A model generated the notes under the pieces. That model ran no database searches. It was not told where the DNA came from and worked only from the letters and a program-made list of their open reading frames with translations. From the NCBI GenBank assembly GCA_038243585.1, contig JBBSQY010000006.1:34764-98763 (forward strand): a DNA stretch of 64,000 bases, written 5' to 3'. The position numbers and the translations under genes are program-made. Source of the stretch: Candidatus Sumerlaeales bacterium (GTDB lineage Bacteria > Sumerlaeota > Sumerlaeia > Sumerlaeales > Sumerlaeaceae). Positions 6,979 to 64,000 of this stretch are shown piece after piece (positions within the stretch are counted from its first letter, which is position 1; each line of letters begins with the position of its first letter).

Positions 6979-6998
6979 GCTACTGGGAAGGTAATTTA

Positions 6999-7388
6999 GT
7001 GATGCAAACTACTAAAAACACGTCGGGAACGGCAGGTAGCCTTTATTTAGGTCGTGTAAATAATGCTTTTGCCATTGTTGAACTATTGCTTGTGGTAATC
7101 GTAATTGCCCTTCTTTCCGGCTGGTATTTCAGAGACGGAAACAATCCACACCAGGAAGCCGCAAGCCAGTACAAGCAGAGCATGGATCGAAGCAAATCCA
7201 CGGCGTGTATCGCCGGGCGATCCGCTATGCGATCTGTGGTGCTGACTCACACAATGCAAAATCCAGGACAACCAGTCACCACAGAGGCCTTAAAAGCAGC
7301 GGGTGTAAATATGAACATCTGTCCCGAGGGCGGCGTTATAACTGTGACAGCGGACGGAAGTCTTCTTTGCTCAATTCACCAGCCATGA
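6999..7388 (+). CDS. Prepilin/pseudopilin-like protein
   Basis: AF-AIVELLLVVIVIALL type IV prepilin-like N-terminus; C-terminal CPEGG...CSIH. Confidence 0.65.
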   Translation: MMQTTKNTSGTAGSLYLGRVNNAFAIVELLLVVIVIALLSGWYFRDGNNPHQEAASQYKQSMDRSKSTACIAGRSAMRSVVLTHTMQNPGQPVTTEALKAAGVNMNICPEGGVITVTADGSLLCSIHQP

Positions 7389-7988: not shown

Positions 7989-8058
7989 TTATGAAATAGA
8001 GCATTTAGGTCAAGAGCAGCCAGATAATAGCAATCGGCCTCTGTTTTTCGCCTTAAAA

Positions 8059-8631
8059 TTGCCCTCAGAGGTGAAGATGCAGCTCGCCGATCTTCAGGCT
8101 CGCCTTAAAATCGGTTGTCGTTTTGTGGATGCTCATCCGAAGTGGGTTGAAACAGACAACCTGCATTTGACTTTGTTGTTTATCGGAAATATAAATAAAA
8201 CTAGAATAGCCGAATTAGCCGAAATTGCTGACGGGGTTGCCGCAGAAATGGACCCGTTTGACGTGGTGGTCGCCAGGCTAGGTTTGTTTCCTGCCGATAG
8301 CAAGGAACCGAAGGTTTTGTCGATAGACGTTAGAGGTATGGACAAGAGTTTGCAGCGGCTGCATGCTCGGCTGCACGATGCACTTTCTCAGCGTGAATTT
8401 GACTTGGAAAGACGGCCTTATAAGCCCCATCTAACCCTCGCCAGAATCACCAGTATCAAAACCGGCTCCCGCCTTGCCCCGCTAGCGGCTTCACACGCCA
8501 ACAAGCTCCAGACGAAATTTACAGCTAGCGAAGTGGTTCTCTTTGAAAGCCAGTTGCAAGCCGAAGGGTCTACCTATAACGACTTGCACACATCAAAATT
8601 TACTAGTAGCTCCGCAACACACGCGGGTTGA
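8059..8631 (+). CDS. thpR: RNA 2',3'-cyclic phosphodiesterase (2H family)
   Basis: Two HxT motifs (LHLTL, PHLTLAR) and LFES..L...G..Y. True start is probably upstream (see findings). Confidence 0.85.
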   Translation: MPSEVKMQLADLQARLKIGCRFVDAHPKWVETDNLHLTLLFIGNINKTRIAELAEIADGVAAEMDPFDVVVARLGLFPADSKEPKVLSIDVRGMDKSLQRLHARLHDALSQREFDLERRPYKPHLTLARITSIKTGSRLAPLAASHANKLQTKFTASEVVLFESQLQAEGSTYNDLHTSKFTSSSATHAG

Positions 8632-8666
8632 TTTAAAGTCTGCAGAGAATTGTAAGTAGGATTTTT

Positions 8667-9422
8667 ATGAAACAATTTATTTATCTTTTTACCGCTATCA
8701 TTTTAAATGGAAGTTGTTTTGCACAAGATACTCCACCTTCGATGAGCGCTGCGGAAGTTGCTAGAGATGTGGTGCAAAAAATTAACCGCATTTCAAGTTT
8801 CAGCGCCACTGTAGAGACTGGGGAAACGGAAGCAGCAAGCCCGGCCTTTAAAACCTCATCAGACTTGGTAGTGTCTCGTCTGTATGGCTGGAAACTGATT
8901 GCTGATGACGGGCCGGAACCCTATACGTTAATTACAGATTTCCAGTCGTTTTACCAGTATTTTCCCAAAGAGAAAAAGGTAATGAAAACGACAGCGGACG
9001 TTCCTGAGCTAAAGGCCATGCTAACAAAACCTGTTACGGATATGAACCCATTAAACCTTCTTGATCCCAAATCACTAGTATATAAAGGTAATGAAAAAGT
9101 GAACGGAGAGACTGTCTACCACATCGAAGGTACAACACAGTCCCAGCTGATGCCGGGCGGGCCGGAAATTAAAAGATCATTGATAGCTTGGATTAGTGTC
9201 GAAGATGGTCTGCCGCGTAAGACTGTTGAGTCAGTCGGCACCTCTACCGGCACTACCGTGTACCAAAATGTAAAAGTTAACCCGCCGGTCTCACCGGCCG
9301 ATTTTACGTTTACTCCTCCGCCGGGAACAGCGGTTATTGATACGAACGAGCAGATGCGTAAAATGCAACAAGAAGATCGGCGCCCTTCAGCAGCCGAACC
9401 GTCGATTACACCTACCCCTTAA
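8667..9422 (+). CDS. LolA-like periplasmic protein
   Basis: Signal peptide; C-terminal NVKVNPPVSPADFTFTPPPG typical of LolA-fold proteins. Confidence 0.6.
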   Translation: MKQFIYLFTAIILNGSCFAQDTPPSMSAAEVARDVVQKINRISSFSATVETGETEAASPAFKTSSDLVVSRLYGWKLIADDGPEPYTLITDFQSFYQYFPKEKKVMKTTADVPELKAMLTKPVTDMNPLNLLDPKSLVYKGNEKVNGETVYHIEGTTQSQLMPGGPEIKRSLIAWISVEDGLPRKTVESVGTSTGTTVYQNVKVNPPVSPADFTFTPPPGTAVIDTNEQMRKMQQEDRRPSAAEPSITPTP

Positions 9423-9463: not shown

Positions 9464-10426
9464 ATGCGTCTCGGAGTTTTTCTAGCGCTGTTTGGCAATC
9501 AGGATCTTGAAACTACATTGGATTTTGTTCAGAAAATCGGTCTTGATACTGTCGAGGTCGGGACGGGAAATTACCCGCCTGACACCCATTGCAAGCCGGC
9601 GGATCTTCTTGGAAACAAAGAAGCGCAGAAGCAGTTTCTTAGTAAATTCAAAAAACGCGGAATCATGATATCCGCCCTGTCTTGCCACGCCAATGCCATT
9701 CATCCCGATGAGGCGGTTGCGTCCGCCCATGCAAAAGTCCAGCGAGATACAATACAGCTTGCTGGTGAGCTTGGCATCGAACGCGTTAACACCTTCAGCG
9801 GCTGTCCCGGCGGTGGTCCCGGCGATAAAACTCCGAACTGGGTAACTTGCCCATGGCCGGACGATTTTCTAAACATTCTGGATTGGCAGTGGAACGAAGT
9901 CATTATTCCATTTTGGAAAAAGGAATCCACTTTCGCAAAAGAGCATGGCGTTAAAGTCGGACTGGAGATGCATCCTGGCTTTTCAGTTTATAATCCTGAA
10001 ACCATGCTGCGCCTTCGCGCTGCTGCTGGCGATAATATTGGCTGCAACTTTGACCCATCGCACTTATTCTGGCAGGGGATGGATCCCATTGCTGCGCTTC
10101 GAGAACTTAAGGGTGCAATTTTCCATGTTCATGCCAAGGACGTTAACATTGATCCTATAAATACATCACGAAATGGCGTACTGGACACAAAACATTACGC
10201 GGACGAACTGAACCGGTCATGGATTTTCCGGACGGTCGGTTATGGTCACGATGAGTTGTTCTGGCGTAATTTCGTCAGCACCCTGAGGTTGATCGGTTAT
10301 GACCACGCCATCAGCATCGAACATGAAGACAGCCTGATGAGTGTAAACGAGGGCCTGAGCAAAGCTGTAGAATTGTTGCGGCGGGTTTTGCTAACTGAAG
10401 AAACCGGCGAAATGTGGTGGGCTTAG
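9464..10426 (+). CDS. Sugar phosphate isomerase/epimerase (xylose isomerase-like TIM barrel)
   Basis: LEMHPG, NFDPSHLFWQG, HVHAKD and SIEHED motifs; GGAGG RBS. Confidence 0.88.
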   Translation: MRLGVFLALFGNQDLETTLDFVQKIGLDTVEVGTGNYPPDTHCKPADLLGNKEAQKQFLSKFKKRGIMISALSCHANAIHPDEAVASAHAKVQRDTIQLAGELGIERVNTFSGCPGGGPGDKTPNWVTCPWPDDFLNILDWQWNEVIIPFWKKESTFAKEHGVKVGLEMHPGFSVYNPETMLRLRAAAGDNIGCNFDPSHLFWQGMDPIAALRELKGAIFHVHAKDVNIDPINTSRNGVLDTKHYADELNRSWIFRTVGYGHDELFWRNFVSTLRLIGYDHAISIEHEDSLMSVNEGLSKAVELLRRVLLTEETGEMWWA

Positions 10427-10848
10427 CCCAATGCCTTCAATTTTTAGTGATACTTACAACCTTGGCACTTTCTTTCGCCGGGTGCAAAGGGAAAGACTGG
10501 CGCCACCATAATGGGTATGTTATTGTCGCCGATTATGGTGACAGGCATGCCGTCATTCACGACGATCCAACTGGTTATCGGGGAGATTTTATAGTCGGGC
10601 CAAGGATTACCCACTGGAATACCTATGATGAGTATCTTCTTGTTTATAAAGTGCCAAATCCAAAAAATGATTTAAACGTGCCTTGGGCAGCGGAGACAGG
10701 CTACGCTATAATTAACACATTCGACGGCAGCACAACTTTCTCGGAAATGCGCGAGAATTATAAATACATGGCCGTGATTCAATTAGGAATTCCGGAAGCT
10801 GAAACGGTGTTACATTCCATTTATCCCAGCATTAAAACCAAAAGATAA
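10414..10848 (+). CDS. Hypothetical lipoprotein
   Basis: Lipobox-like FAGC after a hydrophobic stretch. Confidence 0.55.
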   Translation: MVGLAQCLQFLVILTTLALSFAGCKGKDWRHHNGYVIVADYGDRHAVIHDDPTGYRGDFIVGPRITHWNTYDEYLLVYKVPNPKNDLNVPWAAETGYAIINTFDGSTTFSEMRENYKYMAVIQLGIPEAETVLHSIYPSIKTKR

Positions 10849-10916
10849 ATTGTTTCTAACGGCATTTGGCCCTGTCGCGGGGCTTTGGTATTTTATAGCA
10901 AAACGATGAACGGAAA

Positions 10917-51529: not shown

Positions 51530-53389
51530 TCATTGATGCACATCAAAATCTTCAGACTCAAAACTCTCAGCATCACCGCCGCGTCGGAGCTTAATCATTG
51601 CTGAGTGGCCCTCGACCTCGCTGTTTAATTCTTTAAGAAACGCAAATGCCTTCTCAGCGTCATCCTGTTTGTCGCTTGAAAGTGAAATATCAAGTCGAAA
51701 AGCGTGCTCTCGAACTTGTGTGCCAATTTCATGCGGCAATGGGTATTCGTCATCCGACAATGCTTCATTGCAGCTACGTAAGTACTGTTCCGCTTGCCGG
51801 CGCATATATTGCCTGCGAACAAACAGACGGTCTTCTTCAGCAGCCGATTCTGATTCCAGAGTAGCCTCCTCGGCGACTTCGACAGATGAAGCGGAATAGC
51901 TAACTATGCTGATCGCATTTGAGGTACCGCTGGTCACGTCCATGGCTTGCACGTGCAAGATGCCGTTGGCGTCTATCTGAAAAGTAACATGGATGGCGGG
52001 TATCTCTTTTGGAGCGGGAGTAATCCCCGCCAATTGAAAAACTCCAAGGCTGTGGTTCTCAGCAGAAATTTTTCGCTCACCCTGTAAAACATGAATCTTT
52101 ACACTCGCCTGGTTATCCTGAACCGTTGTAAACGTCCTGGTATGAGACGTGGGAATTGAACTGTTTCTCGGGATAAGAGACGAAAAAAGGCCGCCCGCGG
52201 TCTCAATTCCAAGACTCAGGGGAGTGACGTCCAGAAGTAAAACTTCCTGGAGACTGCCTGACATTATGGCGCCTTGGATAGCTGCACCTATGGCGACCGC
52301 CTCGTCAGGATTTATTGAACGAACTGGTTCGGTATTAAAAAAGTCACGTACCAGGTTCTGCACATACGGAATCCGGGTAGACCCACCGACAAGAATAACA
52401 CTGTTAATGTCTGACACTGCAAACCCTGAGTCGCGCACGGCCTGTGAACAACATAGGGTAAGTTGTTCGGCAAAAGGCTCCACAAGGGCCTCGAACTCAT
52501 CCCGCCGAATAGTAATTTGCAAATGCTGAGGCCCCGCCTCGTTCATTGCCACAAAAGGAAGACTGACCATGGTTTCCGGCGCAGAGGACAATTCACATTT
52601 GGCTGTTTCGACAGCTTCCTTTACCCTCTGGAAGGCCTGTAGATTATCAGAAAGGTCAATGCCGTTGCTTTCCTTAAACTGAGAGATCAACAGACGCATT
52701 AGATTATCGTCAAAATTATCTCCACCAAGGAAAGTGTCACCACGGGTCGCGCGCACTTCAAATAGATCTCTATCGACTTCAAGGATAGAAAGATCGAAAG
52801 TTCCACCCCCAAGGTCAAAGACGGCAATCTTCTGGCGTATGTTTTTATCAACGCCATAGGCAAGCGCCGCCGCAGTCGGTTCGTTGATTATTCGAACGAC
52901 CTCCAGACCAGCCATTTCGCCGGCGCGTTTAGTGGCGCTTCTCTGGTCATCGTTAAAATAAGCGGGAACGGTAACAACAGCCCGACTGACAGGCTCCCCA
53001 AAAAAATCTTCCGCGGTCGCCCGCATTTTCTTAAGGATTTCTGAGCTGACTTGCTCCGGCGATACTTGGGTCCAGCCCACATCGATAAGCACGGACTCAT
53101 CCTGGCCTGCTACCAGGTCATAAGTGATCCCATAACGCAGGCGCTCAATCTCTGAAAAACGAGCTCCCATAAAACGCTTTACAGATCGAATCGTCTGTTT
53201 GGGAAAACTCACAGCCTGTCGTTTTGCCAGTTCTCCCACAACGATTTCTTCAGGGCTCTTATATAAAACAACCGAGGGCGTGGTTCGAGAACCTTCAGCA
53301 TTTTGTATAACGATTGGCTGACCTTGTTCAAGATATGCGACAACGCTATTGGTGGTGCCGAGGTCGATACCGAGAATTCGCTCCGTCAT
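51530..53389 (-). CDS. Hsp70/DnaK-family chaperone (probable paralog)
   Basis: GIDLGTTNS, TVPAYFND, INEPTAAALAYG, DLGGGTFD and LLLDVTPLSLG; divergent C-terminal lid. Confidence 0.92.
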   Translation of the reverse strand: MTERILGIDLGTTNSVVAYLEQGQPIVIQNAEGSRTTPSVVLYKSPEEIVVGELAKRQAVSFPKQTIRSVKRFMGARFSEIERLRYGITYDLVAGQDESVLIDVGWTQVSPEQVSSEILKKMRATAEDFFGEPVSRAVVTVPAYFNDDQRSATKRAGEMAGLEVVRIINEPTAAALAYGVDKNIRQKIAVFDLGGGTFDLSILEVDRDLFEVRATRGDTFLGGDNFDDNLMRLLISQFKESNGIDLSDNLQAFQRVKEAVETAKCELSSAPETMVSLPFVAMNEAGPQHLQITIRRDEFEALVEPFAEQLTLCCSQAVRDSGFAVSDINSVILVGGSTRIPYVQNLVRDFFNTEPVRSINPDEAVAIGAAIQGAIMSGSLQEVLLLDVTPLSLGIETAGGLFSSLIPRNSSIPTSHTRTFTTVQDNQASVKIHVLQGERKISAENHSLGVFQLAGITPAPKEIPAIHVTFQIDANGILHVQAMDVTSGTSNAISIVSYSASSVEVAEEATLESESAAEEDRLFVRRQYMRRQAEQYLRSCNEALSDDEYPLPHEIGTQVREHAFRLDISLSSDKQDDAEKAFAFLKELNSEVEGHSAMIKLRRGGDAESFESEDFDVHQ

Positions 53390-54141
53390 TAGCCTTTGCG
53401 CCCAAACAGCTTGGAGAATAAACTTTTTTTACTAGGGGAGAGGCATTCGAGAGCCATACGCGCTTTATCGTTAGCTGGATCCCACTTTAAAATTTCCTGA
53501 TAGGTGCTGATCGCCATGCTGAAAATTTTGGCACCTTCATAAAGTTCCGCAAGAATCATCCGGTAATCACTGTTATATGGGTCGAGGTCAATGGCCCGCT
53601 GTGCAGCCTCCGTCGCCCGGCTGAAACTTCTGTGTCCCCGCAAAAGCGAAAGCGCAAGCCGCGCGTGATACACTGCTTCCTGATCAGCGTTTTTAATAGC
53701 CATCTCAAAAAGCTCGGAGGCCTTTCCATAATCGCCCGCAGTCATCATCTGCGTTCCCCGAACAAACGCGCGTTTTGCTACAGTTGCTCGATTTTGCTCC
53801 GTGGCTGCGTTGCCGAAAACCGGCTTTCCCTCACCGCCGGATGAACTGCCAGATCCAGTCGACGATCCACCTGATCCGGCCGATTTCCCGCCATCATCAT
53901 TTCCATTACTATTAGATGCAAGGGTTTTATCGAAAAGAGCTCGTTTACTCTTGTCTTTCAACGTGTTATAAGCCGTCGATATCCTGGAAAATTCTGCCTC
54001 TAGGGTAACCGCCTGCTCAGGAGACTCCGCCTTGTCTGGATGGTACCGACGGGCAAGGCGGTGATATGCCGACTTAATCTCTAAATCAGAGGCTGTTCTG
54101 GGAACACCCAATATTTCATAAAAGTTTTTTGCCACACTCAC
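53389..54141 (-). CDS. J-domain plus TPR co-chaperone
   Basis: FYEILGV...YHPDK J-domain, G/S linker, TPRs; stop overlaps the Hsp70 start. Confidence 0.88.
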   Translation of the reverse strand: MSVAKNFYEILGVPRTASDLEIKSAYHRLARRYHPDKAESPEQAVTLEAEFSRISTAYNTLKDKSKRALFDKTLASNSNGNDDGGKSAGSGGSSTGSGSSSGGEGKPVFGNAATEQNRATVAKRAFVRGTQMMTAGDYGKASELFEMAIKNADQEAVYHARLALSLLRGHRSFSRATEAAQRAIDLDPYNSDYRMILAELYEGAKIFSMAISTYQEILKWDPANDKARMALECLSPSKKSLFSKLFGRKG

Positions 54142-54366: not shown

Positions 54367-55425
54367 TTACTCAAATATGTACCAGGTAGTAGCAGCCGTT
54401 TCTCCTGGAACTCGTGATCTGACGCTAATTTCACCTCTAATAATCTTTGCTTTGGCGTCTTCTACATGGTTACGGATATTTTGATCGATGATAGCAGGGT
54501 CATAAACATATCCCAGAACATCTTCCACCAGACCATACGAAATTCGTCCGCCTGAAAATTGGCCGTTTACCACTTGGCTGACAACATTACGGACTAAAAC
54601 ATCACCCTTTTTGAGCATACTCGTAATGATCACGCCTTCTTCTGCTGAGGACGATTGATCTTTATCCACCCCGATCGCCATTACACCGCGATCCTCCGCC
54701 GCCTTAAACACTCCCAGACCCGTCGATCCCGAAGCATGGAAAATAACATCGGCGCCGCCATCAATAAGCAAATTCGCCATCTGTTCGCCCTTTAAGGGGT
54801 TATTAAAACCATCATCCCCCTCGCTGGCATATACAGGATCTACATGGACGGCCGGCACGGCATATTTTGCTCCCTGAGTATATCCCGCCTCAAAACGTTT
54901 GATTAACGGAATAGGAGTCGCACCCACAAAGCCGATTCTTCCGGTCCGAGACTTGAGAGCCGCAATCATCCCCACCAGAAACGCCCCTTCATGCTCACGA
55001 AATGAAATACCAGCTAGATTCTCCGGAACCGGGCCCGAGTGAGAGTAATCCAGACAGACAAAGGTCTGCGTCGTATGAGACTCTGCCAAATCCGTTATAA
55101 CGTCGCTAAACATCGTGCCGGTAGCAATGATTAAATCTGAATTGCCATTAGCCACTTCGGTCAAAACTGCCTCGCGATCAGGCGGATCGCCAGGTGAACG
55201 ATAATTTACGTCCACTCCAAACTCAGTACCCGCCAGTTGCAGGCCGGCCCAGGCTTGGTCATTGTATGATCCGTCCCCGAGCCCCCCAATAGCGAATACT
55301 AATGTTGCCTTCGTAACAGTTGTGGTAGAGCGAACGTCTTCCTGCGCGAAAAGATTACAGCAGCAAAAGCTTAAACCCGTCGCCAAAACAGCCGCAGTCA
55401 TACTAAACAACTTCATTTCAAACAC
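54367..55425 (-). CDS. BMP/PnrA-family substrate-binding protein
   Basis: GGLGDGSYN, FREHEGAFLVG, GADVIFHASG and AIGVDKDQ. Confidence 0.88.
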   Translation of the reverse strand: MFEMKLFSMTAAVLATGLSFCCCNLFAQEDVRSTTTVTKATLVFAIGGLGDGSYNDQAWAGLQLAGTEFGVDVNYRSPGDPPDREAVLTEVANGNSDLIIATGTMFSDVITDLAESHTTQTFVCLDYSHSGPVPENLAGISFREHEGAFLVGMIAALKSRTGRIGFVGATPIPLIKRFEAGYTQGAKYAVPAVHVDPVYASEGDDGFNNPLKGEQMANLLIDGGADVIFHASGSTGLGVFKAAEDRGVMAIGVDKDQSSSAEEGVIITSMLKKGDVLVRNVVSQVVNGQFSGGRISYGLVEDVLGYVYDPAIIDQNIRNHVEDAKAKIIRGEISVRSRVPGETAATTWYIFE

Positions 55426-55534: not shown

Positions 55535-55620
55535 TGGTGCCGAAGGTGGGACTCGAACCCACACACCCTTGCGAGCGGAGGATTTTGAGTCCTCTGCGTC
55601 TGCCATTCCGCCACTTCGGC
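55535..55620 (-). tRNA. tRNA-Leu(CAA), integration target
   Basis: GCCGAAGTGGCGGAATGGCAGACGCA-GAGGA-CTCAAAA-TCCTC, long variable arm, GTTCGAGTCCC...TTCGGCACCA; 86 nt. Confidence 0.97.
55579..55620. repeat. att core, left copy (within tRNA-Leu)
   Basis: AGGATTTTGAGTCCTCTGCGTCTGCCATTCCGCCACTTCGGC, identical to 63889-63930. Confidence 0.97.
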
Positions 55621-55772
55621 CCAAACTAGCGATTTTGTGACTACCTCAAGCACTGACGGTTATTTCCGGGCAACTGCACTATCCTAAAGCAAACAAAGAC
55701 GTTCACCCCAAAACGGCAGAAAACGCCAGAAAACAGGCAGAAAACGCCACCTTGATGTCAACAATCTGGCAT

Positions 55773-55805
55773 CCCCCCGCTGATGTATTTCGGCGGGGGT
55801 TTTTC
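55773..55805 (+). terminator. Intrinsic terminator-like hairpin at the left end of the element
   Basis: CCCCCCGCTGA...TCGGCGGGGG followed by TTTTT. Confidence 0.65.
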
Positions 55806-55905
55806 TTTGTCGTTGGCATTCTTGATCGCCAATTATCATTAATTACTTGACATTGTTGTGAGTGACTGCTTCTGTCCGCGAACTTGGGAATAGGGGGAGT
55901 CAGCT

Positions 55906-56268
55906 ATGAGGGGCAAGCCGCGCAACTATTGGAGCAACCAGGAATTCCTCGAGCTGCGGCGCCAGTACATCGAGCGCCCGACCGAGGCCCTGATGGTTGA
56001 GCTGATAGATCGATTCTTTAGGCCCTTGATCGACGGATACTGGAGCAAGTACTACCCAACATTTCCCGATCTCGATGAGCACGCTGCAAAGCCTGGAGCT
56101 GTCTGCATGTGCTGGATCAAGTTCGACAGATTTGACCCTACCAAGGGAAGTGGCCTGAACTATTTCACTAAGATCGTGCAGCACGAGTTCATGGGCGAAC
56201 AGGCGAAGGCCGCGCTGTATCGCCGCCGCTTTATTAATTCCTCAAGCTTGAACCTACCGGATCGTTAA
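55906..56268 (+). CDS. Sigma-70 region-2-like protein resembling T4 gp55 late sigma
   Basis: N-terminal NYWSNQEFL and KFDRFDPTKGSGLNYFTKIVQHEF; GGGGGAG RBS; no region 4. Confidence 0.6.
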   Translation: MRGKPRNYWSNQEFLELRRQYIERPTEALMVELIDRFFRPLIDGYWSKYYPTFPDLDEHAAKPGAVCMCWIKFDRFDPTKGSGLNYFTKIVQHEFMGEQAKAALYRRRFINSSSLNLPDR

Positions 56269-56615
56269 GCGCCTGATTATCGCGGGTCCCGCTACCAAAT
56301 GGGTAACAGATCGCCCGATACCAGGGGGGGGAGTGTAAAACAGCGCAAAATGTACACGCCCGTTCGATACGCCACACTCGAGGCAAAAAACCCGTTTTTT
56401 AGAAAAACCCCCCCTTGGGCAAACCCTTACACATCGGGCATTTCCGGCGAATGGTAGCCAAATAAAACCCCCCCTTTACCTCTAAAACCCCCCCTTTTAT
56501 TAGAAAACCCCCCCCCTCCTTTTTGAGCGCCTGGCTAAGCGCTCGGACCTCTGACGGCTTCTGCATTAGATAGTCGTATAAAGCTGTCCCTTGATGGGGC
56601 AAGAATGGGTGCAAC

Positions 56616-57239
56616 ATGCAGGAACCAGAAGCGGCCGCACCAGCGGCTGAAGTTGTAGAAGTACCGGACACAAGCCTGGAGCTTGATACCGAAATTGATA
56701 CAGAAGCCGCCCCGGTGGCTGAAGAGACTGAACAAGCGGAAACAGGCCCGGAGTCTGATACCGATGATTCAGAAGTGCCGGAAGAAACCGTAGAACCGGA
56801 GGCCGTAATACCGCCCGCCGCAGACATGGTTTCAAAGCGTGAGTACAACAAGCTTTGCCAGAAACACGACGGAATGAAGCTGGACGTATTCAATCTGCGC
56901 GAGAGCCGGCGCGAGCTAAAAGCTGCCCTTGATACCGTAAAAGCGGAATCACAGCAACGGGTTGAAGCATTGGAAGCGCAAATCCTGGACATGAAAACCC
57001 AGGCAATGTTTGACCTCGAGCGGGTTCCTGAGTCCGACCGCAAGGATCTGTTACAGCTCCCCACGATTGAACAGCGGCAGCATTGGGCAAGGAAGTTGTC
57101 GACCATAGCAAGGACAATGTCCCCCTTTGGCGGCGCACGCGTAATGACTGCTGGAGAGGGTCCACCAAAACCCAACCTGGCACTAATTGACGACATACCG
57201 ACCCAGGCACACCGCCCAAAACGGCGCGGGTCAAAATAG
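56616..57239 (+). CDS. Putative capsid scaffolding protein
   Basis: Very acidic disordered N-terminus, central coiled coil, basic C-terminus; directly upstream of the capsid gene. Confidence 0.65.
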   Translation: MQEPEAAAPAAEVVEVPDTSLELDTEIDTEAAPVAEETEQAETGPESDTDDSEVPEETVEPEAVIPPAADMVSKREYNKLCQKHDGMKLDVFNLRESRRELKAALDTVKAESQQRVEALEAQILDMKTQAMFDLERVPESDRKDLLQLPTIEQRQHWARKLSTIARTMSPFGGARVMTAGEGPPKPNLALIDDIPTQAHRPKRRGSK

Positions 57240-57280
57240 CAGCACACTCTAAGCAACTCAAAATATAAGGATTTTCTAAA

Positions 57281-58180
57281 ATGGCAGTTACCCAAAACAC
57301 AGACTTGCACAGCATCCAGCAAGTCGGCACTAGCGCGGTAGACGTAGCATTTTCAGCAACCCCGCTTCTGGCTATCCCAGGTCTTGCGATCGACGTCAAA
57401 GGCAGGATAAGCGACGGCGGCGGCGACAGCATCGATTTCAGCGTCTGGGAGACAGATGTAAGCGCAATTACCCAGAACGCTGTCAGAGGCGCACGGGCAG
57501 GCGTTACACCGTCAAAGCTCACCCTTACCAGCTATAATGAGCAGGCGATTGCCAAAGTTATTTCCCTGGACGGCGACCGCTATGCGTTGTCGGATTCCAG
57601 CGAAGATTCCCTGGCACATATTTCCAGCATTGTCGGCAAAGAGTTCGCCCGGGTTATCCAGGCAAACTTGATTGCCCAGGCGGTGGACCCTACGAAGGGA
57701 ACAGACCTGGTACACAGCGCCACTGCGAAGCTGACGGTTTCCGATATTCTAAAGGCCCGGCTGAAGTGGGCGGACCATGCTTCTGAAATTGGCGCGCCTT
57801 ACCTGTTCGTTCATAGCAGTCAGTTTGCCGATTTGGCGACGGACGCGGATTTCAAGACTATGGCAGCAGGCGGATCCGCGACCCCGGTCCTACCTGAAGC
57901 CGACTGGACCCGTTTCGTTGTTGCCCAGGTGTTCGGCTGCAACATCGTACTCTGTGACAGCCTGCCGATTGACGTGACCGCCACGCCTGATACCAAGACG
58001 GCCCTCATGGTCGGAGCTGGTGCGTTTGGCGTTTACGTGGCTGATGACCCAGACACCATTATTTTGTCCCATGCAGGATCTGCGGTGCAGACAATCGACA
58101 CCCATTTCCGTTTCGCCACCACCCTGTTCCGGCACAACCCCAAGCGCGTTGTGAAGCTGGTGACCAAGGAAGCCGCTTAG
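57281..58180 (+). CDS. Major capsid protein (HK97 fold, N4-gp56-like)
   Basis: GDSIDF..W, LT.S, D.LAHISSIVGKEFARVI...LI, ILKA..K, LFVHSSQFADL, VFGCNIVLCDSLP and terminal VVKL: the pattern of ~300-aa HK97-fold capsid proteins. Confidence 0.8.
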   Translation: MAVTQNTDLHSIQQVGTSAVDVAFSATPLLAIPGLAIDVKGRISDGGGDSIDFSVWETDVSAITQNAVRGARAGVTPSKLTLTSYNEQAIAKVISLDGDRYALSDSSEDSLAHISSIVGKEFARVIQANLIAQAVDPTKGTDLVHSATAKLTVSDILKARLKWADHASEIGAPYLFVHSSQFADLATDADFKTMAAGGSATPVLPEADWTRFVVAQVFGCNIVLCDSLPIDVTATPDTKTALMVGAGAFGVYVADDPDTIILSHAGSAVQTIDTHFRFATTLFRHNPKRVVKLVTKEAA

Positions 58181-58226
58181 ACTAGATTGCAGGGTGGGTT
58201 CCCCTTATCGTTCCCGCTTTGCATAC

Positions 58227-58266
58227 AGCCCGCCCCAGGCTTAGTCACCCTGGAGCGGGCTTTTTT
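58227..58266 (+). terminator. Intrinsic terminator after the capsid gene
   Basis: AGCCCGCCCCAGG...CCTGGAGCGGGCT followed by a T run. Confidence 0.8.
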
Positions 58267-58290
58267 ACTTATCAGCAGAAAGGGCCTGCT

Positions 58291-58965
58291 ATGGCACTGA
58301 AGAATTTCGACCTGGCGAACTCCGCGGCCATTGACCAGGCTATGAAAGAGATTAGTAAAAAGGAGCTGATGAAGCTCCTGAAGATGGCCGGGCTGCGTAT
58401 CATTCAGCAGCACAAGGTTTTTGAGCGGCACTGGAAAGAGGGTCAGTCGAGCTGGTCAGCGCCGACGGACGCCTACGCTAAGTTTGTCAAAAAGCGGTAT
58501 GGTGGCAGCGGCCGATTCGATGCCACTGGGGCAGCACGAAAAGCCCTGGGAAAGAAACCGACAAAGACCGGGCCCCTGGGGCTGACAGTCTCGAAGAAGT
58601 TCAACAGCCTGACGATTCACCTGCGGAAAATGGTCAATGGTAAGAACGTCTATGGGATTGCACAGCTCGGCAAGTTCAGGGGATTAACGACCAAAGACGG
58701 GAAGCAGGTTTCAGCAAAAAAGGCGATCGAGATCAACCGGGAGGCCTCTTCAAAATACAAAAAGAACCAAATGAGCGGCGGCAACGCGAAGTGGGGTGAT
58801 GTAATGAGCGCCACTGCTAAAAAGCACGGCACCGACGGAGCGAAAAGAAACAGCGAGAGCCCGAGGCATATTACTGAAGTTCAAAGCAGCGACCATGCAG
58901 CGGTCGAGGAAAGTATCATGGCCGAGATTGAAGCGACGTTGAAACACCGCGGCATAAAAATTTAA
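58291..58965 (+). CDS. Basic protein resembling Mu gpG/P2 gpS virion morphogenesis family
   Basis: FERHWKEGQSSWSAPTDAYAKFVKK...FDATGAARKAL and VYGIAQLG resemble the F...G..W.PL...Y...K...L..TG.L / YA.IHQ.G pattern. ATG 58291 follows GAAAGGG. Confidence 0.5.
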   Translation: MALKNFDLANSAAIDQAMKEISKKELMKLLKMAGLRIIQQHKVFERHWKEGQSSWSAPTDAYAKFVKKRYGGSGRFDATGAARKALGKKPTKTGPLGLTVSKKFNSLTIHLRKMVNGKNVYGIAQLGKFRGLTTKDGKQVSAKKAIEINREASSKYKKNQMSGGNAKWGDVMSATAKKHGTDGAKRNSESPRHITEVQSSDHAAVEESIMAEIEATLKHRGIKI

Positions 58966-58978
58966 GGAGCTCGAGGCA

Positions 58979-59260
58979 ATGACCCAGGCTGAAATAGATG
59001 AAGAGGTAAAGCGCCGGGTGGCGACGGAGGTCCACCTGGCAGCCGCGGCACTCACAGGGATTCTGTCGAACCAGGAACTCCTGCAGGACTTGCAGGGGCA
59101 GGTTGCGCGAGGGAAACCACGGGTAGACCTAAACGAAAAGGTGGCCAACATGGCCGCCATGGTCGCGTTTGTTACCACCATTATCCTGGGCAACAATGAA
59201 GAGGCACACCGGGACATGTTGCAGGAGGCCGAAACGCCACTTTCCAAAAGCGGCCACTAA
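58979..59260 (+). CDS. Hypothetical protein
   Basis: 93 aa with GAGG RBS; AAAALTGILSN motif is common in small phage proteins. Confidence 0.65.
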   Translation: MTQAEIDEEVKRRVATEVHLAAAALTGILSNQELLQDLQGQVARGKPRVDLNEKVANMAAMVAFVTTIILGNNEEAHRDMLQEAETPLSKSGH

Positions 59261-59386
59261 TAGCCTTTTTTCTTGCAACCGTCATTGCGCGAGCGTTGTC
59301 TTACGTCCGATTCGATAAATTTACGCATTTGCGAATCCTGACATGGCGAGGCTTCAACCCGAGCGCTAGGGTGATGTGGAGGCTTT

Positions 59387-59563
59387 ATGATGCAAAGAAT
59401 TACGCAGGAAATGAGAAACCGGGTGCGGGCTGTGATTGGACCGGAGAGGTACGACAGCACGGCTGGAGAGCTTGAGCGCTTTTCCAGGGATAGTAAAAAC
59501 CGCAGGCGGAGAGAGCTTTACCAGGAACGACAGGACCGCTGGCGATCTAATCCGAGCAAATAA
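59387..59563 (+). CDS. Small basic hypothetical protein (58 aa, below ORF-track cutoff)
   Basis: GGAGG RBS; MMQRITQEMRNRVRAVIGPERYD...WRSNPSK*; terminator immediately downstream. Confidence 0.55.
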   Translation: MMQRITQEMRNRVRAVIGPERYDSTAGELERFSRDSKNRRRRELYQERQDRWRSNPSK

Positions 59564-59570
59564 CAGAATT

Positions 59571-59597
59571 AAGCCCGTCAGAAATGGCGGGCTTTTT
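59571..59597 (+). terminator. Intrinsic terminator
   Basis: AAGCCCGTCA-GAAA-TGGCGGGCTT followed by TTT. Confidence 0.8.
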
Positions 59598-59629
59598 ATA
59601 TTGACACCCCGCCGGGCAATAACCGATGC

Positions 59630-59715
59630 CAGAAACATAAACGGCCCCAGGAAGCGCTTGCAACGCTCCCCAGGGCCTGAGTCAAAGACGGTATGCGAGT
59701 ACCGAATGACCTACG
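59630..59715 (-). ncRNA. Candidate structured RNA, C4-antisense-like
   Basis: Two hairpins that pair fully only on the minus strand (G-U pairs), a U-rich tail, and an upstream TTGACG box. Confidence 0.45.
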
Positions 59716-59775
59716 CGCAATCCCTACGGCGCTCGGCATATCCGTCAACCTATATTATGGAAAGACGGTTTTTTT

Positions 59776-60405
59776 ATGTCTACGAACAAGAACACGAGCA
59801 AGGCCTCACCGATAAAAGATGCTGGCCATAAAAGCCGCACCCTGGTCATTCCCGATGCCGGTAATATAACAGTCACGGACGAAACCGGACACAGCAGTAT
59901 TATTGAGGAATTTAACGTCGCGTTTTGGGACGCCTGGCAACTGATACCACAGACCACGCGCTCCGCGATTGTGGATTATTGGCAATCACTGGCTAAGAAA
60001 AATAAAAAGCCTGACAACCTTGCGGAACTATCGTTTGTGCTAATCGGGCATGATCGCGAAAACCTTACTCTTGATGAGTGGGAACTTGATCACCATGTGA
60101 CGGACATGATGAAAAGGAACTTCTGGATCTACGACGTCAGGGCGTGGCCTGCAACTCCATTTAAACAACGGCGGGCAGCGCTTTTCTTCCTGTCACATTT
60201 CGTTGACCATTTGTCTTTTTTTCCTAACATGCCAAACAGCCTAATCCACACCGACAGCGTTTTTTATATCGGACAAAGTACGGATGTTGTTCGTTACTGG
60301 GAGACGGGCAAGCAAACCAAAAGGTTTCAGCAGTTCATAGAGCAAATTGACGGAACTATTGCCGAGCTGGAGGCCGCAAAGGCCGCATACCTTGGAACAG
60401 AATAG
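59776..60405 (+). CDS. Hypothetical protein (element cargo)
   Basis: 209-aa ORF followed by a terminator; no family recognised. Confidence 0.65.
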   Translation: MSTNKNTSKASPIKDAGHKSRTLVIPDAGNITVTDETGHSSIIEEFNVAFWDAWQLIPQTTRSAIVDYWQSLAKKNKKPDNLAELSFVLIGHDRENLTLDEWELDHHVTDMMKRNFWIYDVRAWPATPFKQRRAALFFLSHFVDHLSFFPNMPNSLIHTDSVFYIGQSTDVVRYWETGKQTKRFQQFIEQIDGTIAELEAAKAAYLGTE

Positions 60406-60425
60406 ACCTAATAGGCAAACCACAC

Positions 60426-60455
60426 CCCGCCTGGCAGACCTCTGGGCGGGTTTTT
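60426..60455 (+). terminator. Intrinsic terminator
   Basis: CCCGCCTGG...CTGGGCGGG followed by TTTTT. Confidence 0.75.
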
Positions 60456-60498
60456 CTTTACAGACCAACACCCCACAAGCTGAGTAACGGCAGTATTA

Positions 60499-60963
60499 AT
60501 GACGATGACGAGGAACGAAACGCCGATGCAGTACAAAGACGACAACCAACTTTGGATTGGGGAAATGCAATCCAGAGACTGGCCGATGTTAATTGGCAAA
60601 TATAAGCAGTGGGGCGCAAAAGTTGCGCTTTACCGACTCCACGATGACATTCTGGAGTGGTATGAACTCACCGATGACATTCAAGCTATACGGATTCTTA
60701 AGCTATGGATTGAAACAGTATTAATAGACGATGCTCCAATTCCAACTATCAATATTCCTGATGTACTAAAGACAAAAAATGGGACTTGCGGTCGTGGAAG
60801 TGGCGGCACTTGGCTAATAGAAAACTGGTCGTCATTATTATCGCCCGGTCTGTGCTTAGGTAAAAGCAATCAGGAAATTGCAAACCTCTTGAAGGCAAAA
60901 TACGGAATTGCGTTAAGCAAGGAAACCGTGCGCCAATACCGCATGAAAGGCTGTTTTCGTTGA
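60499..60963 (+). CDS. Hypothetical protein with possible C-terminal HTH (start may be ATG 60526)
   Basis: SNQEIANLLKAKYGIALSKETVRQY resembles an HTH. Confidence 0.55.
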   Translation: MTMTRNETPMQYKDDNQLWIGEMQSRDWPMLIGKYKQWGAKVALYRLHDDILEWYELTDDIQAIRILKLWIETVLIDDAPIPTINIPDVLKTKNGTCGRGSGGTWLIENWSSLLSPGLCLGKSNQEIANLLKAKYGIALSKETVRQYRMKGCFR

Positions 60964-61052
60964 TCATTGCCACAACTTAGCAATGTAGCAATGTAGCGAC
61001 GGTGTAACCTGATGTGGTCATAATTCGACATTCTTTTTTTGGATGTGATACT

Positions 61053-61301
61053 ATGACGAAACGTAATGCTGAAACGGTCAGTGTAGATTCCCTTTCCGTG
61101 GCTGCCGCGCTAATTGCAAACGGTTGCCGACTTACTGAAACCACCCAGACCGGCCCCAGGCGTTGCCAGTTTACCCTTACCGGCCCAGACGCTGAAATGC
61201 TGGCTGCGGACTATACGCTTGGACGCCTCGAGGGCAACCTGCGGGACTTTATGACGGCCTTTGACCTGCTACGCACCAAGGTGCGTACTGGGGGCAGGTA
61301 A
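61053..61301 (+). CDS. Small phage-type protein (DUF5659-like)
   Basis: DSLSVAAALIANGCRL...RCQFTL...DY..G.L..DF..A...LR pattern; TAATG coupling to the rep gene. Confidence 0.55.
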   Translation: MTKRNAETVSVDSLSVAAALIANGCRLTETTQTGPRRCQFTLTGPDAEMLAADYTLGRLEGNLRDFMTAFDLLRTKVRTGGR

Positions 61302-62212
61302 TGGCCAACCGCATACCACCATCGGACGATAAGATACGCGAGCAATTCAACGCCCTGGACAAGGTTAAACGGGCGTACATTGCGCTTGATCAATTCAGTA
61401 ATATGTCAGCTGAGGCAACGGCTTTGTGGCACTACCTGGCCTGTAGGCGTTCGAATGAAACGGGTACCGCGTGGCCACCATATAGAGACCTGATGAGGCG
61501 CTTTGGTTGGAGTAAGCCAACACTGGATGAAGCCATTGCAGAACTGGAAGAGCGCCTTCCTGGTGCCTTTGCTGTTAAGAAAAACAGCGGTAAATCCAGC
61601 AACACCTACAGCATAGCAAAGCAGGTAGACTGGCCAGAGGATCTGATTAATGATCTCCGGTGGAACTCAGGCCGGCGACATGTTCATATAAAGCGGGTAC
61701 CCACAAAACCACGAAGTAAACCAAACCCTAGACCATGGAAAAGCTCTAGTGTTTCGACGTGCGAAACACAGCCTAGCGTTCCGACGTGCGAAACGCATAG
61801 TGTTTCGACGTACGAAACGCATAGCGTTCCGACGTGCGAAACGCTAGGGGCTGTTAGTGTTCCGCACGTCAAAACACCCTATGGAAATAATAGTGGAAGT
61901 GGTTCTGGAAGTGGGTCTGGAAGTGTAGAGAAAAGCATTACTGGAAGTGAAAGAGCTGTTGTAAACAGCCATGATAATGCTTATAATGGCACTCGGCCTC
62001 AAAAACGCCCCGACAGTAGTGCAGCAGATGCACTACCGGAAGTGCACGACGTTCCCACAAGGTGCCATACCTGCGAAAGAGAGCTGACACCAGGTCAGGG
62101 AAGAATGGACGGCGGCAAGCTGTTCTGCGGATTTGATTGTCTCGGCAAGCACCTCGAAGAACCTGTCAAAGATTTATGGGCAGGTGTGGATTCTGATGGG
62201 GGTGCCAAATGA
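61301..62212 (+). CDS. Replication initiator-like protein (N-terminal wHTH, internal iterons, C-terminal Cys4 motif)
   Basis: LWHYLACRR...AWPPYRDLMRRFGWSKPTLDEAIAELEE...SNTY is a phage replisome-organiser-type HTH; repeat block mid-gene. Confidence 0.72.
   Translation: MANRIPPSDDKIREQFNALDKVKRAYIALDQFSNMSAEATALWHYLACRRSNETGTAWPPYRDLMRRFGWSKPTLDEAIAELEERLPGAFAVKKNSGKSSNTYSIAKQVDWPEDLINDLRWNSGRRHVHIKRVPTKPRSKPNPRPWKSSSVSTCETQPSVPTCETHSVSTYETHSVPTCETLGAVSVPHVKTPYGNNSGSGSGSGSGSVEKSITGSERAVVNSHDNAYNGTRPQKRPDSSAADALPEVHDVPTRCHTCERELTPGQGRMDGGKLFCGFDCLGKHLEEPVKDLWAGVDSDGGAK
61747..61877. repeat. Iteron array / putative replication origin
   Basis: Four direct copies of TAGYGTTYCGACGTRCGAAACRC at 61747, 61774, 61798 and 61822, plus a copy with an inverted core at 61855. 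Confidence 0.85.
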
Positions 62213-62520
62213 GCGCCCCGCTGGAGTTTAAGCCTGGCGTGTTCTACCCGTTCGACCACCTGGAGAAGCAGCTGGCGGGCGTGATGACGGTAAAGACGTT
62301 CCTCATGGGCCTTGGCTTGGACTGTACCGGGCGCAACCGGACGTTTCAGAATGGCGTCATGGGTGATGAGATCCTCGAGGCCATGAAGAATGCGGCCAGA
62401 AAGCCGAAAGCGACGCCTGCGTCGCAACCCCATGTTGACCGGGTTCGAAAGCGCGGACGCCCATCCGAACAGCAGGGGAATGATTTCAGGCCAGTAACCC
62501 GCAAGGATCTACTTGACTGA
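62209..62520 (+). CDS. Small basic protein, putative excisionase/DNA-binding
   Basis: ATGA overlap with rep; lies upstream of the integrase; RKRGRP motif. Function inferred from position only. Confidence 0.5.
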   Translation: MSAPLEFKPGVFYPFDHLEKQLAGVMTVKTFLMGLGLDCTGRNRTFQNGVMGDEILEAMKNAARKPKATPASQPHVDRVRKRGRPSEQQGNDFRPVTRKDLLD

Positions 62521-62621
62521 TGCGCCCGGTTAAAGAGACCCGTATTCTTGACCATGCTTTTGACGATGACGAGAACGATGACGACAGCGGCAAAACCATT
62601 CCTATGGCGGAATGGGGGTGA
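62520..62621 (+). CDS. 33-aa acidic mini-ORF
   Basis: TGATG overlap with the upstream stop; ends 1 nt before the integrase ATG. Confidence 0.4.
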   Translation: MRPVKETRILDHAFDDDENDDDSGKTIPMAEWG

Positions 62622-62622
62622 C

Positions 62623-63873
62623 ATGATGAAAACATCTACTTCAACCCGCTGGCGAAAGATTCGCATCCCTGGCTTTGTGTCGCTGTTCCACGATGGAGAA
62701 ACCGCTTTCCGGATTCGCTACACTGAGCCTGGTACCGGAAAAGACGTCCGACACCGCCTGCCAGTCGACACCCTCGAAGAGGCCAAGAAGATTGTGCGCG
62801 GCTGTAACGCTGAAATCGGAAACGAGCGCAAGATTCCCGGCATGAAGTCGAAGGTTCCGAAAAAGGAAACCGTGCGAAGCTCACTCCTTGAGGCGTTAAA
62901 GGCCATGGGCGGAAACTCTGACACCCAAGCGCGAGCAATGCAGGGCGTAAACCGCTTCCTGAAGTTCCTACAGGCCAGATACCCTACTGTGGCCGTATGG
63001 CAGGACATACGCCCTTCCATGTGTCTGGCATGGGTCAAGGCAATGGACGAAGAGGGCATGGCCTACGACACGTTCCGGCTTGCCCTGGTGCCGATTAAGT
63101 ACGCGAGCACTTACTGGCATGAGGAAATGGCCTATGATGACGTGATGGCGTCAAAACTGGTGCGGTCGAGGGTCCGGACGGTAAGAAAGAACCGGCCACA
63201 ATCGAAAACCGGCACGGCGCTGACTGCCAAGGAGCTGACAGCGTTCATGGAATGGCTAAAGGAAAACAAGCCTTTGCTCTATCCCATGGCCATGCTGATG
63301 GGCCTGGCAGGTCTACGCATGTTTGAGGCGGCGTACCTGCGCCGCTGCGACGTGGATTTCACCAATGGAACTGTGACGGTTGATAAAACCCCTCTGCATA
63401 CGCCAAAGAACCGGCCAAGCCACAGGGCAATTCCTGTTCACCAGGCGGCGCTCCAGGCAGTCAGAGACCATTTGGCACACTCAAAGGTCCAGACTATTGG
63501 CGATGAGCTATTCACGCACTCAGGCGGCGGCCCGTGGAAGTCTAACGGGCTTTTCAGTGCATGGCGCTATGCAATGATTGAGGCCCGTGCGGCGTGCGGT
63601 CTTCCGGCGGATTTCAAGGCCAGAAACCTGCGTGCGACGTTCGTAACGCTTTCAAGGCGAGCAAAGGCCGATTATCCCATACTGAAACAGTACATCGGCC
63701 ATACAGCTGGCGACATGATCGGAGAGCATTACGAATCGGTAACGGTTGCGGATCTGCGGCGGGAAGTAGTGGACGTTTTTCAGAGCTTTTTGGATGCCGA
63801 TGTCAACAATCTGGCAGAACCCTCGAAAACTGAGGCTGAAAGTGCATTGAAGGTCAACATTATCGGGCTGTAG
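62623..63873 (+). CDS. Tyrosine recombinase/integrase
   Basis: GLRMFE (R), TPKN (K), RNLRAT (HxxR variant), IGH and EHY (Y). ATG 62623 follows GGGGGTG. Ends 15 bp from the att repeat. Confidence 0.93.
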   Translation: MMKTSTSTRWRKIRIPGFVSLFHDGETAFRIRYTEPGTGKDVRHRLPVDTLEEAKKIVRGCNAEIGNERKIPGMKSKVPKKETVRSSLLEALKAMGGNSDTQARAMQGVNRFLKFLQARYPTVAVWQDIRPSMCLAWVKAMDEEGMAYDTFRLALVPIKYASTYWHEEMAYDDVMASKLVRSRVRTVRKNRPQSKTGTALTAKELTAFMEWLKENKPLLYPMAMLMGLAGLRMFEAAYLRRCDVDFTNGTVTVDKTPLHTPKNRPSHRAIPVHQAALQAVRDHLAHSKVQTIGDELFTHSGGGPWKSNGLFSAWRYAMIEARAACGLPADFKARNLRATFVTLSRRAKADYPILKQYIGHTAGDMIGEHYESVTVADLRREVVDVFQSFLDADVNNLAEPSKTEAESALKVNIIGL

Positions 63874-63888
63874 TCAAAACCGGCACGC

Positions 63889-63930
63889 AGGATTTTGAGT
63901 CCTCTGCGTCTGCCATTCCGCCACTTCGGC
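63889..63930. repeat. att core, right copy (5' half of tRNA-Leu only)
   Basis: Identical to 55579-55620; the tRNA match stops after the anticodon stem. Confidence 0.97.
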
Positions 63931-64000
63931 GCGGTTTAACGAAAGCTTGATTACCCAGATTAGTCATGGTTATTTCCGTTTCATATGATACAGCCTCCTG

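Follow-up and report, generated by a model that had tools for sequence, protein, structure and literature searches.

A probable phage satellite of a Sumerlaeota bacterium with its own HK97-fold capsid gene and a putative tail-completion gene

How might an element of 8.3 kb travel in phage particles if it encodes a capsid protein and no recognizable portal or terminase? The question is raised by a stretch of 64,000 nucleotides (the window) from a Candidatus Sumerlaeales bacterium, positions 34,764 to 98,763 of contig JBBSQY010000006.1 in assembly GCA_038243585.1. The window is the end of this contig (C6), and the assembly is 3.4 Mb in size and 89.7% complete. Positions 55579 to 63930 had been described from the letters alone, in what we call the sequence-only reading, as a complete satellite-like element bearing an HK97-fold capsid gene of its own. 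That description is borne out: the element has attachment (att) repeats and a known empty site, the capsid protein has a structural match, and none of the three findings named as contrary to it (descent from full prophages by deletion, orphan genes that prove to encode terminase or portal, a capsid candidate of another fold) was made. We conclude that the element is very probably an intact phage satellite resembling the phage-inducible chromosomal islands (PICIs). As to how it travels, we prefer, with a probability of roughly 0.55, the reading of a helper-dependent satellite whose own scaffold and capsid proteins would form a shell on the helper's portal, and which adds its own tail-completion protein.

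The element is inserted in a tRNA-Leu(CAA) gene

An exact 42-nt direct repeat is found at 55579-55620 and at 63889-63930, with a spacing of 8,310 nt. An empty site opens contig C36 of the same assembly, where 281 of 293 nt correspond to the left flank and tRNA, and 114 of 115 nt to the right end; the left flank is 96% identical between the two contigs. The empty site fixes both ends of the element, and we read C36 as a co-assembled strain that lacks it. The perfect att repeats and the 8310-bp excised circle of the sequence-only reading stand on this evidence.

The att core is the 5' half of tRNA-Leu(CAA), up to the anticodon arm, and a complete copy of the tRNA lies on the minus strand at the left end (55535-55620), as identified by ARAGORN, by the Rfam tRNA model, and by comparison with the empty site. 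The element therefore rebuilds the tRNA with a 5' half (left att core, 55579-55620) and upstream DNA of its own; the host's original 5' half is stranded at the right end (right att core, 63889-63930), where the repeat and C36 place it still behind the host promoter. The target is thus regenerated from its 5' side, as it is in the relative L083, a 5.9-kb element (3346-9335) in which the 5' half of tRNA-Leu(CAA) is likewise present twice and whose related integrase is seemingly split. An 11-nt motif on the minus strand (55658-55668) is in exact register with a copy at 63968-63978, upstream of the host's own tRNA allele. It occurs within 70 nt (at most 2 mismatches) of 3 of 42 tRNA genes, two of which are these tRNA-Leu alleles, and may mimic a tRNA promoter or leader. 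A perfect 18-nt repeat on the plus strand (55754-55771; second copy, 63799-63816) has just these two copies in the 3.4-Mb assembly; both flank the att core in the excised circle, and they are candidate integrase arm sites.

Twelve plus-strand open reading frames (ORFs) occupy 82% of the element, and two pairs overlap, o9 and the replication gene by 1 nt and the replication gene and the xis-like gene by 4 nt, in keeping with the intact, same-strand, often coupled genes reported earlier. Long minus-strand ORFs over o2, o3, and o5 had no Pfam match and were treated as shadows.

The element encodes an HK97-fold capsid protein preceded by a putative scaffold

The 299-aa protein o3 (57281-58180, plus strand) was identified as a major capsid protein from its predicted fold and its relatives. 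Its AlphaFold model has a mean confidence (pLDDT) of 75. A Foldseek search with this model gave a best E of 7e-12 in the PDB, to a phage capsid, with encapsulins also matched, and 3e-16 to viral capsids in BFVD; the fold match covers about 300 aligned columns with TM scores of 0.47 to 0.63 and a probability of 1.0. The Atlas score was 0.97, and Pfam gave no match. The predicted structure confirms the HK97 capsid fold, so the earlier label on this ORF holds. Despite the structural matches, an encapsulin identity was rejected on ancestry. The protein has 18 relatives at 45 to 76% identity, most of them full length, and is 36% identical to the capsid protein of prophage L010, described below.

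A capsid profile found matches in 5 of 75 genomes of the phylum, the host included, and in 4 of 104 metagenome candidates. Two pattern scans of IMG/VR gave no relative among 39 and 41 candidates, and pattern- or BLAST-limited scans of INPHARED and PLSDB gave none. Purifying selection is apparent from the dN/dS of 0.12 between the capsid genes of L019 and L021, the sole close pair among 10 that is not saturated.

The gene in front of the capsid gene encodes o2 (56616-57239, plus strand; 207 aa), a putative scaffolding protein that occupies the same place as in L010, L015, L020, and L021 and whose first third is 33% Asp plus Glu. A match of o2 to ParB (E = 8e-4, below the cutoff) was rejected.

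Packaging genes are missing, and the capsid branches apart from prophage capsids

Fifteen ORFs were scanned against Pfam, PHROGs, and NCBIfam at E ≤ 0.1, and none matched a terminase, portal, protease, lysis, tail-tube, or primase family. The sequence-only reading had listed terminase, portal, protease, tail, lysis, and primase as missing; its list agrees with the scans except for the tail entry, o4 being a probable tail-completion protein (see below). A tail match to a 52-aa ORF (E = 0.013) is at chance level and was set aside. No ORF matched a family of the small terminase subunit (TerS), and two small TerS-like profiles did no better on 10 ORFs than 13 of 300 shuffles, although a divergent TerS could escape such searches. 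The ORFs without a label are at most 209 aa long, compared with 470 to 549 aa for the portal and large terminase subunit (TerL) of related prophages. Neither family, profile, nor shuffle tests matched the orphans to a terminase or portal.

The related prophages L010 and L015 are full siphoviral prophages that carry TerL, an SPP1-type portal, scaffold, capsid, an adaptor-like protein, Neck1, a tube-like protein, and tape measure, in this order; no protease match was found in the related prophages. Their contigs begin inside the prophage and run for 33 and 28 kb, respectively, to a tRNA. L030 is a third member of this family, with the same neck and tail order and another capsid type. Ten profiles from the related prophages were compared with 1,445 six-frame segments (at least 20 aa) from six small elements. 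Just the capsid (E = 2e-46) and Neck1 (E = 0.002) scored in the element; TerL, portal, adaptor, terminator, tube, chaperone, tape measure, and Dit gave nothing at E ≤ 0.5. In L018, L020, and L021, the capsid alone scored.

These three are themselves small. L018 spans 6.5 kb between tRNA-Leu repeats and encodes an integrase, an HTH_17 protein, an initiator, and a capsid protein (9869-10891) without about 75 N-terminal residues; it has no scaffold gene. L020 and L021 are contigs with 127-nt terminal repeats, which we read as circles of 8.0 kb and 7.6 kb; both carry scaffold-like and capsid genes, with no integrase match and no tail gene. Two further features of these elements were noted. The L018 capsid contains an inserted domain of 65 to 70 aa that matches virion and tail-fiber PHROGs, and several relatives of about 368 aa also match in two stretches. 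L020 and L021 share ORFs of 158 aa, 59 aa, and 166/175 aa oriented opposite to the capsid gene, and their replication genes differ.

In a capsid tree of 49 rows, from which sequences shorter than 240 aa and the most distant matches were excluded and whose rows were assigned to loci through the lengths of their contigs, the element groups with L018, L020, and L021 in a clade of 23 rows (support, 100/99) that excludes the L010 and L015 capsids. The four clade members of known context, this element included, are all elements of 6.5 to 8.3 kb, two of them the integrase-less circles. Approximately unbiased (AU) tests, carried out on 25 of the 49 rows with groups defined once the first tree had been inspected, rejected a grouping of the element capsid with that of L010 (P = 3e-71) or L015 (P = 4e-11). 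With the capsid branching apart from the related full prophages, derivation from such prophages by deletion is not borne out.

o4 is a probable tail-completion protein

The capsid gene is followed by o4 (58291-58965, plus strand, with an alternative start at 58219), which encodes a basic protein of 224 aa that resembles the tail-completion proteins gpG and Neck1. Its Atlas score of 0.95 falls in a virion morphogenesis cluster, and PF05069 is found in 38% of the members of one cluster. A pairwise comparison of o4 with the Neck1 protein of L015, itself recognized by phrog_26 at E = 0.0013, gave E = 9e-5, and its score against the three prophage Neck1 proteins was reached by none of 2,000 shuffles. 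The hhalign probability is just 10%, and o4 lies below the Pfam and PHROG thresholds. From the Atlas score, the pairwise match, and the shuffles, homology of o4 to tail-completion proteins is supported, and with it the gpG-like label first given to this ORF. The SPP1 tail-completion protein helps to join head and tail and routes DNA into the cell, according to the portion of that study available (PMC11099176).

Replication, integration, and accessory genes

The right part of the element carries a replication and integration module. o12 (62623-63873, plus strand; 416 aa) is a tyrosine integrase, with matches to PF00589 (E = 3e-13) and phrog_1 (E = 3e-35). o10 (61301-62212, plus strand; 303 aa) is a replication initiator, matched by HTH_36 (E = 2e-7) and by a phage O-like initiator (E = 2e-6); the gene contains four iterons, repeats of 26 nt, at 61744-61844. 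Between them, o11 (62209-62520, plus strand; 103 aa) is 36% identical to ORFs that in L069 and L075 directly precede related integrase genes and is probably an excisionase, a function suggested by its position. In front of o10, o9 (61053-61301, plus strand; 82 aa) matches DUF5659 at just E = 0.12 in Pfam; its score from two relatives was reached by none of 2,000 shuffles, and in L068 and L069 similar ORFs likewise precede the replication gene. These results agree with the earlier labels of integrase, rep with iterons, and DUF5659-like, and uphold that of xis-like by context only.

Three further ORFs lie between o4 and o9 in addition to a doubtful one. o5 (58979-59260, plus strand; 93 aa) is an orphan without a family match. 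A basic ORF of 58 aa (59387-59563, plus strand) is a doubtful gene followed by a terminator-like hairpin at 59571-59594. A leader of about 180 nt (59610-59785, plus strand) is 74% identical to a leader at the same module boundary of L001, a second element in this genome; the rest of the 75 phylum genomes gave one 22-nt match and nothing else, Rfam gave no match at E ≤ 1, and 1 of 34 predicted pairs covaries between the two sequences compared. The orphan o7 (59776-60405, plus strand; 209 aa) has a lower GC content (0.48), its own terminator-like hairpin (60426-60450), and no relative in INPHARED in a pattern- or BLAST-limited scan; it is probably an accessory gene. o8 (60499-60963, plus strand; 154 aa) occupies the position of a 184-aa helix-turn-helix (HTH)-like ORF of L068 and may be a regulator with a C-terminal HTH, a weak assignment since 21 of 2,000 shuffles were as good.

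At the left end, o1 (55906-56268, plus strand; 120 aa) is a possible stand-alone sigma-70 domain 2, too short to include domain 4. Its model has a pLDDT of 50.7, and 10 of the 27 chains matched at Z ≥ 2 are from sigma-factor entries, with a best Z of 2.9. No family match was found, no homologue among 3 candidates, and no match at E ≤ 0.001 in a Foldseek search of a viral library. Pairwise comparisons with the sigma-like ORFs of L068 and of L015 and L001 failed, and a joint profile was equaled or beaten by 751 of 2,000 shuffles. A PDB sequence match over 39 aa (E = 0.0018) was disregarded. The central motif of o1 resembles what we take to be sigma region 2.3. Between o1 and o2 lies a noncoding gap of 347 nt (56269-56615) with three 24-nt C-tract repeats at 56391-56515 and no match to the DNA of related prophages or loci; it is a candidate late promoter or packaging signal.

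Outside the element, the host flank holds at 51530-54141 what we take, from unscanned sequence, to be a DnaK-like gene and then a gene with J-domain and TPR, followed by a Bmp-family lipoprotein gene at 54367-55425.

The backbone recurs in the phylum with different cargo

Relatives of the integrase are present in 19 of the 75 phylum genomes, the host included (E ≤ 1e-15). Among 30 further integrase matches, 17 regions were examined, and family scans covered 30 to 31 of about 120 listed ORFs. Four of the 17 regions are att-flanked elements of 5.9 to 15 kb with tRNA-anchored repeats; none of the 17 gave a tblastn match to three capsid queries. No integrase relative was found among 14 IMG/VR candidates (pattern- or BLAST-limited), and a whole-element DNA search found 3 of the 75 genomes, two of them others with mere 72-nt and 32-nt matches.

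The combination of a DUF5659-like gene, a replication gene, an xis-like gene, and a tRNA-targeting integrase recurs in these small att-flanked elements. L068, from the host's family, has sigma-like, HTH-like, DUF5659-like, primase, and integrase genes in the same order, without a capsid match, and L082 has a TerS match on the same backbone. L073 (140-15246) is a 15-kb att-flanked element in tRNA-Ser with an O-like initiator, a DnaC-like loader, tape measure, a Mu-type protease, and a TerS-like gene, again with no capsid match. Since the backbone is shared among L068, L073, L082, and this element and the cargo varies, we conclude that various hijacking modules are borne on a single satellite backbone.

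A second satellite, L001 (5051-15605 of contig C2), lies in tRNA-Met of the same genome. It is 10.5 kb long and encodes an integrase, a DUF3987 primase-helicase, a tape-measure-like ORF, and a different HK97 capsid (PF05065). Its 201-aa zinc-ribbon ORF is homologous to one in the circle L020 (E = 2e-8) and is possibly a TerS. Two tandem tyrosine-integrase genes are found elsewhere in this genome (C7, 34211-36905).

The element in metagenome reads

The element is present in one soil metagenome run, X1, which may be the source of its genome; no RNA run was listed as containing it. A second variant in X1 spans o1 to the start of o4, and 21 of its 34 listed within-ORF differences (from 40 of 50 rows) fall at third codon positions. 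Of the capsid codons that differ, 7 of 10 are silent; the corresponding counts of silent and replacement codons are 5 and 5 in o1 and 1 and 2 in o4. Contig depth in X1 is 7 to 9 over most of the element, 14.9 over the capsid gene, and 9.8 over the flank, values that do not represent a copy number. No circle (attP) joint was found among the contigs listed for X1, which does not show its absence, and a joint across att in run X3, with a side of 27 nt, was discarded because it probably derives from a different organism. Loose ends at 55865, 56269-56370, and 59788 in X1, with a contig that skips 100 nt, suggest that the sample contains another related element with o1, the capsid module, and the leader in common.

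How the element might be mobilized

A phage of the L010/L015/L030 type is the likely gene donor and the likely type of helper. When such a siphophage replicates in the cell, the element would be excised by its xis and int products and replicate from its iterons. Scaffold and capsid would then be expressed, perhaps through the sigma-2-like o1, and assemble into a small shell on the portal of the helper. The helper terminase would fill this shell, presumably through a copied packaging signal, a presumption made because no TerS is recognizable. The helper's adaptor and tail would be added, with o4 built into the top of the tail, where it would favor the attachment of tails to satellite heads or the delivery of DNA from them; heads of this size would shut out the helper genome of at least 28 to 33 kb.

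Several observations weigh against this reading. No helper of the L010-type family was found in the host assembly, which is 89.7% complete; searches of it with phrog_2, PF05133, PF04860, PF03237, and PF03354 gave no match. The context of the capsid clade is known for just 4 of the 23 rows (plus L019 and L022 in part), so that phage-borne members may hide among the remainder, and the short capsid of L018 would fit decay or a role outside the shell. o4 has no close homologue among 321 candidates and is missing from L018, L020, and L021, which makes it no trait of the clade as a whole; the variant codons of o1 and o4 give no sign of strong selection. The scaffold label of o2 agrees with its position and acidic N terminus and draws no support from its sequence, given that 1,811 of 2,000 shuffles equal its score against four related scaffolds. 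The sigma-like label of o1 is likewise weak: the 10 structural matches, all below Z of 3, speak for it, whereas the lack of a family match and the 25 of 2,000 shuffles that do as well against region 2 of the host sigma factor do not.

Further searches of the host assembly brought up other terminase-like sequences. PF17289 gave two matches, neither in prophage context. A lone large-terminase-like ORF of 592 aa stands among housekeeping genes on C36 (18925-20703), and a C-terminal terminase fragment at the start of C27 (7-459).

The strongest competitor, although an improbable one, is that the capsid protein redirects size by co-assembling with the helper capsid, as does Ccm of SaPIbov5, which forms pentamers. 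The 36% identity of o3 to the candidate helper's capsid parallels the homology of Ccm to the phi12 capsid reported in the available part of PMC8569155, and L018 retains a capsid gene that lacks the N-terminal part and has no scaffold partner. Against this, a scaffold-like gene precedes the capsid gene in the element, L020, and L021, and most relatives have a full-length capsid protein, in keeping with an independent shell. It is distinctly less probable that the homologues of capsid and tail-completion proteins act as decoys and poison the assembly of the helper or an invading phage, the element itself riding in ordinary helper particles. The great divergence of o4 from phage Neck1 proteins would agree with such a role, and PICI capsid genes need not act as they look: in the accessible portion of PMC6092414, interference by EcCICFT073 persists after deletion of its capsid gene. 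A structural role accords better with full-length conservation, the low capsid dN/dS, and the order of scaffold and capsid genes.

We give somewhat less credit still to DNA containers without portal or tail, or to the use of a domesticated terminase and head genes of the host. Encapsulins among the matches of the o3 model, the lone terminase on C36, and the circles without integrase or tail gene could be cited for these ideas; the capsid, however, descends from a siphophage family and from no host system, the tail-completion gene implies tails, and the distribution is patchy, with capsid relatives in so few genomes of the phylum. Last, a deletion remnant of a full prophage, which might be read from scaffold, capsid, and Neck1 in the L010/L015 order minus the adaptor and from a phage-like, one-directional rep-xis-int, is largely refuted by intact frames, by the lack of any trace of the other prophage genes, by a capsid clade apart from the prophages and common to three other small elements, and by a backbone shared with small att-flanked elements.

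The preferred reading remains a satellite with its own shell on a borrowed portal. More tentatively, and with the odds against it, the element may represent a separate class of satellites, some integrated and others plasmid-like circles, that make their own small shell on a borrowed portal without a TerS of their own, this member swapping its tail-completion protein into the helper tail to control head joining and DNA delivery.

Capsid-encoding satellites are hereby extended to a little-studied phylum, with a candidate helper family named from the same phylum; the literature found on Sumerlaeota and prophages, judged by titles and the start of abstracts, contained nothing on satellites. Should the element make its own shell, a foreign portal and motor can serve a satellite capsid, a point of interest for the origin of the capsid-forming PICIs (cf-PICIs). 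Action of o4 at the top of the tail would mark a point of hijacking not found in the literature searched.

Comparison with known satellites

The sequence-only reading held that this gene set fits no known type. That was overstated, since a capsid gene in the absence of a portal gene has precedents in PICIs and EPIPs, and a sigma70-like factor has one in PLEs.

The PICIs with a capsid gene (SatelliteFinder types A and B; PmCI172, EcCICFT073, PhiRv1/2) are closest. As the available portions of PMC10085698 and PMC6092414 describe them, they are about 8 to 10 kb long and tRNA integrated, with a tyrosine integrase, a replication gene of their own, a capsid gene, and no portal or TerL; PmCI172 has a capsid homologue of its own and produces small heads (PMC6092414). 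The SatelliteFinder model names five components, a capsid gene among them, and forbids portal and tail genes, according to the part of PMC10085698 consulted. The element has the integrase with att repeats and the capsid gene. A PICI regulator (AlpA, MerR, or Stl) had no family match, the HTH signal of o8 being weak, and as to the primase-replicase module, there is an initiator with iterons and no primase match. It further differs in having no recognizable TerS, in rep-xis-int that all point toward att, and in o4, a tail-completion homologue where the model, taken from its description, allows no other structural (tail) gene. With a tail-related gene that departs from one feature, and no clear regulator or TerS, the element works like a capsid-encoding PICI, yet we do not file it as one.

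The EPIPs of Mycolicibacterium aichiense, as far as the accessible text of PMC12822802 goes, are also small and dependent on a siphoviral helper, and carry scaffold and capsid genes with no portal or TerL listed; in the element, the scaffold is assigned by position and the helper is presumed. EPIPs have in addition a serine integrase, TerS, adaptor, stopper, and tape measure, none of which was found in the element, whose integrase is of the tyrosine type; the same preprint also states that EPIPs lack capsid proteins. SaPIbov5 likewise has a capsid protein homologous to that of its helper and does not need TerS, but Ccm co-assembles with the helper capsid and no scaffold partner is described in the available part of PMC8569155, whereas the element capsid gene is flanked by scaffold-like and tail-completion genes.

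The cf-PICIs share with the element a capsid of their own and, by the proposed mechanism, tails taken from a phage; they differ in encoding portal, protease, connectors, HNH, TerS, and TerL in about 15 kb (10.1101/2022.09.08.507074, in the part available). The element gave no match to portal, TerL, protease, or head-tail connectors in family or profile searches. In PLEs of Vibrio cholerae, a sigma70-like factor is a frequent marker, to which the weakly sigma-like o1 may be compared; the marker list in the consulted part of PMC10085698 contains no capsid protein, and general family scans, without PLE-specific profiles, found no CapR, RepA, NixI, or LidI. Integrative mobile elements encapsidated in virions (VEIMEs) encode no major capsid, as stated in the accessible part of PMC9618062, and the element does. 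As to defective prophages, neither the profile comparison, the tree, nor the AU tests showed broken or partial late genes or descent from a full prophage.

A satellite with both a capsid and a tail-completion protein, or one that hijacks tail completion, was not found in the open-licence literature searched. New relative to known satellites are the probable tail-completion gene, the lack of a recognizable TerS, the targeting of a tRNA 5' half, and the plasmid-like relatives; a distinct class, if there is one, would be a step between the capsid-remodeling PICIs and the cf-PICIs.

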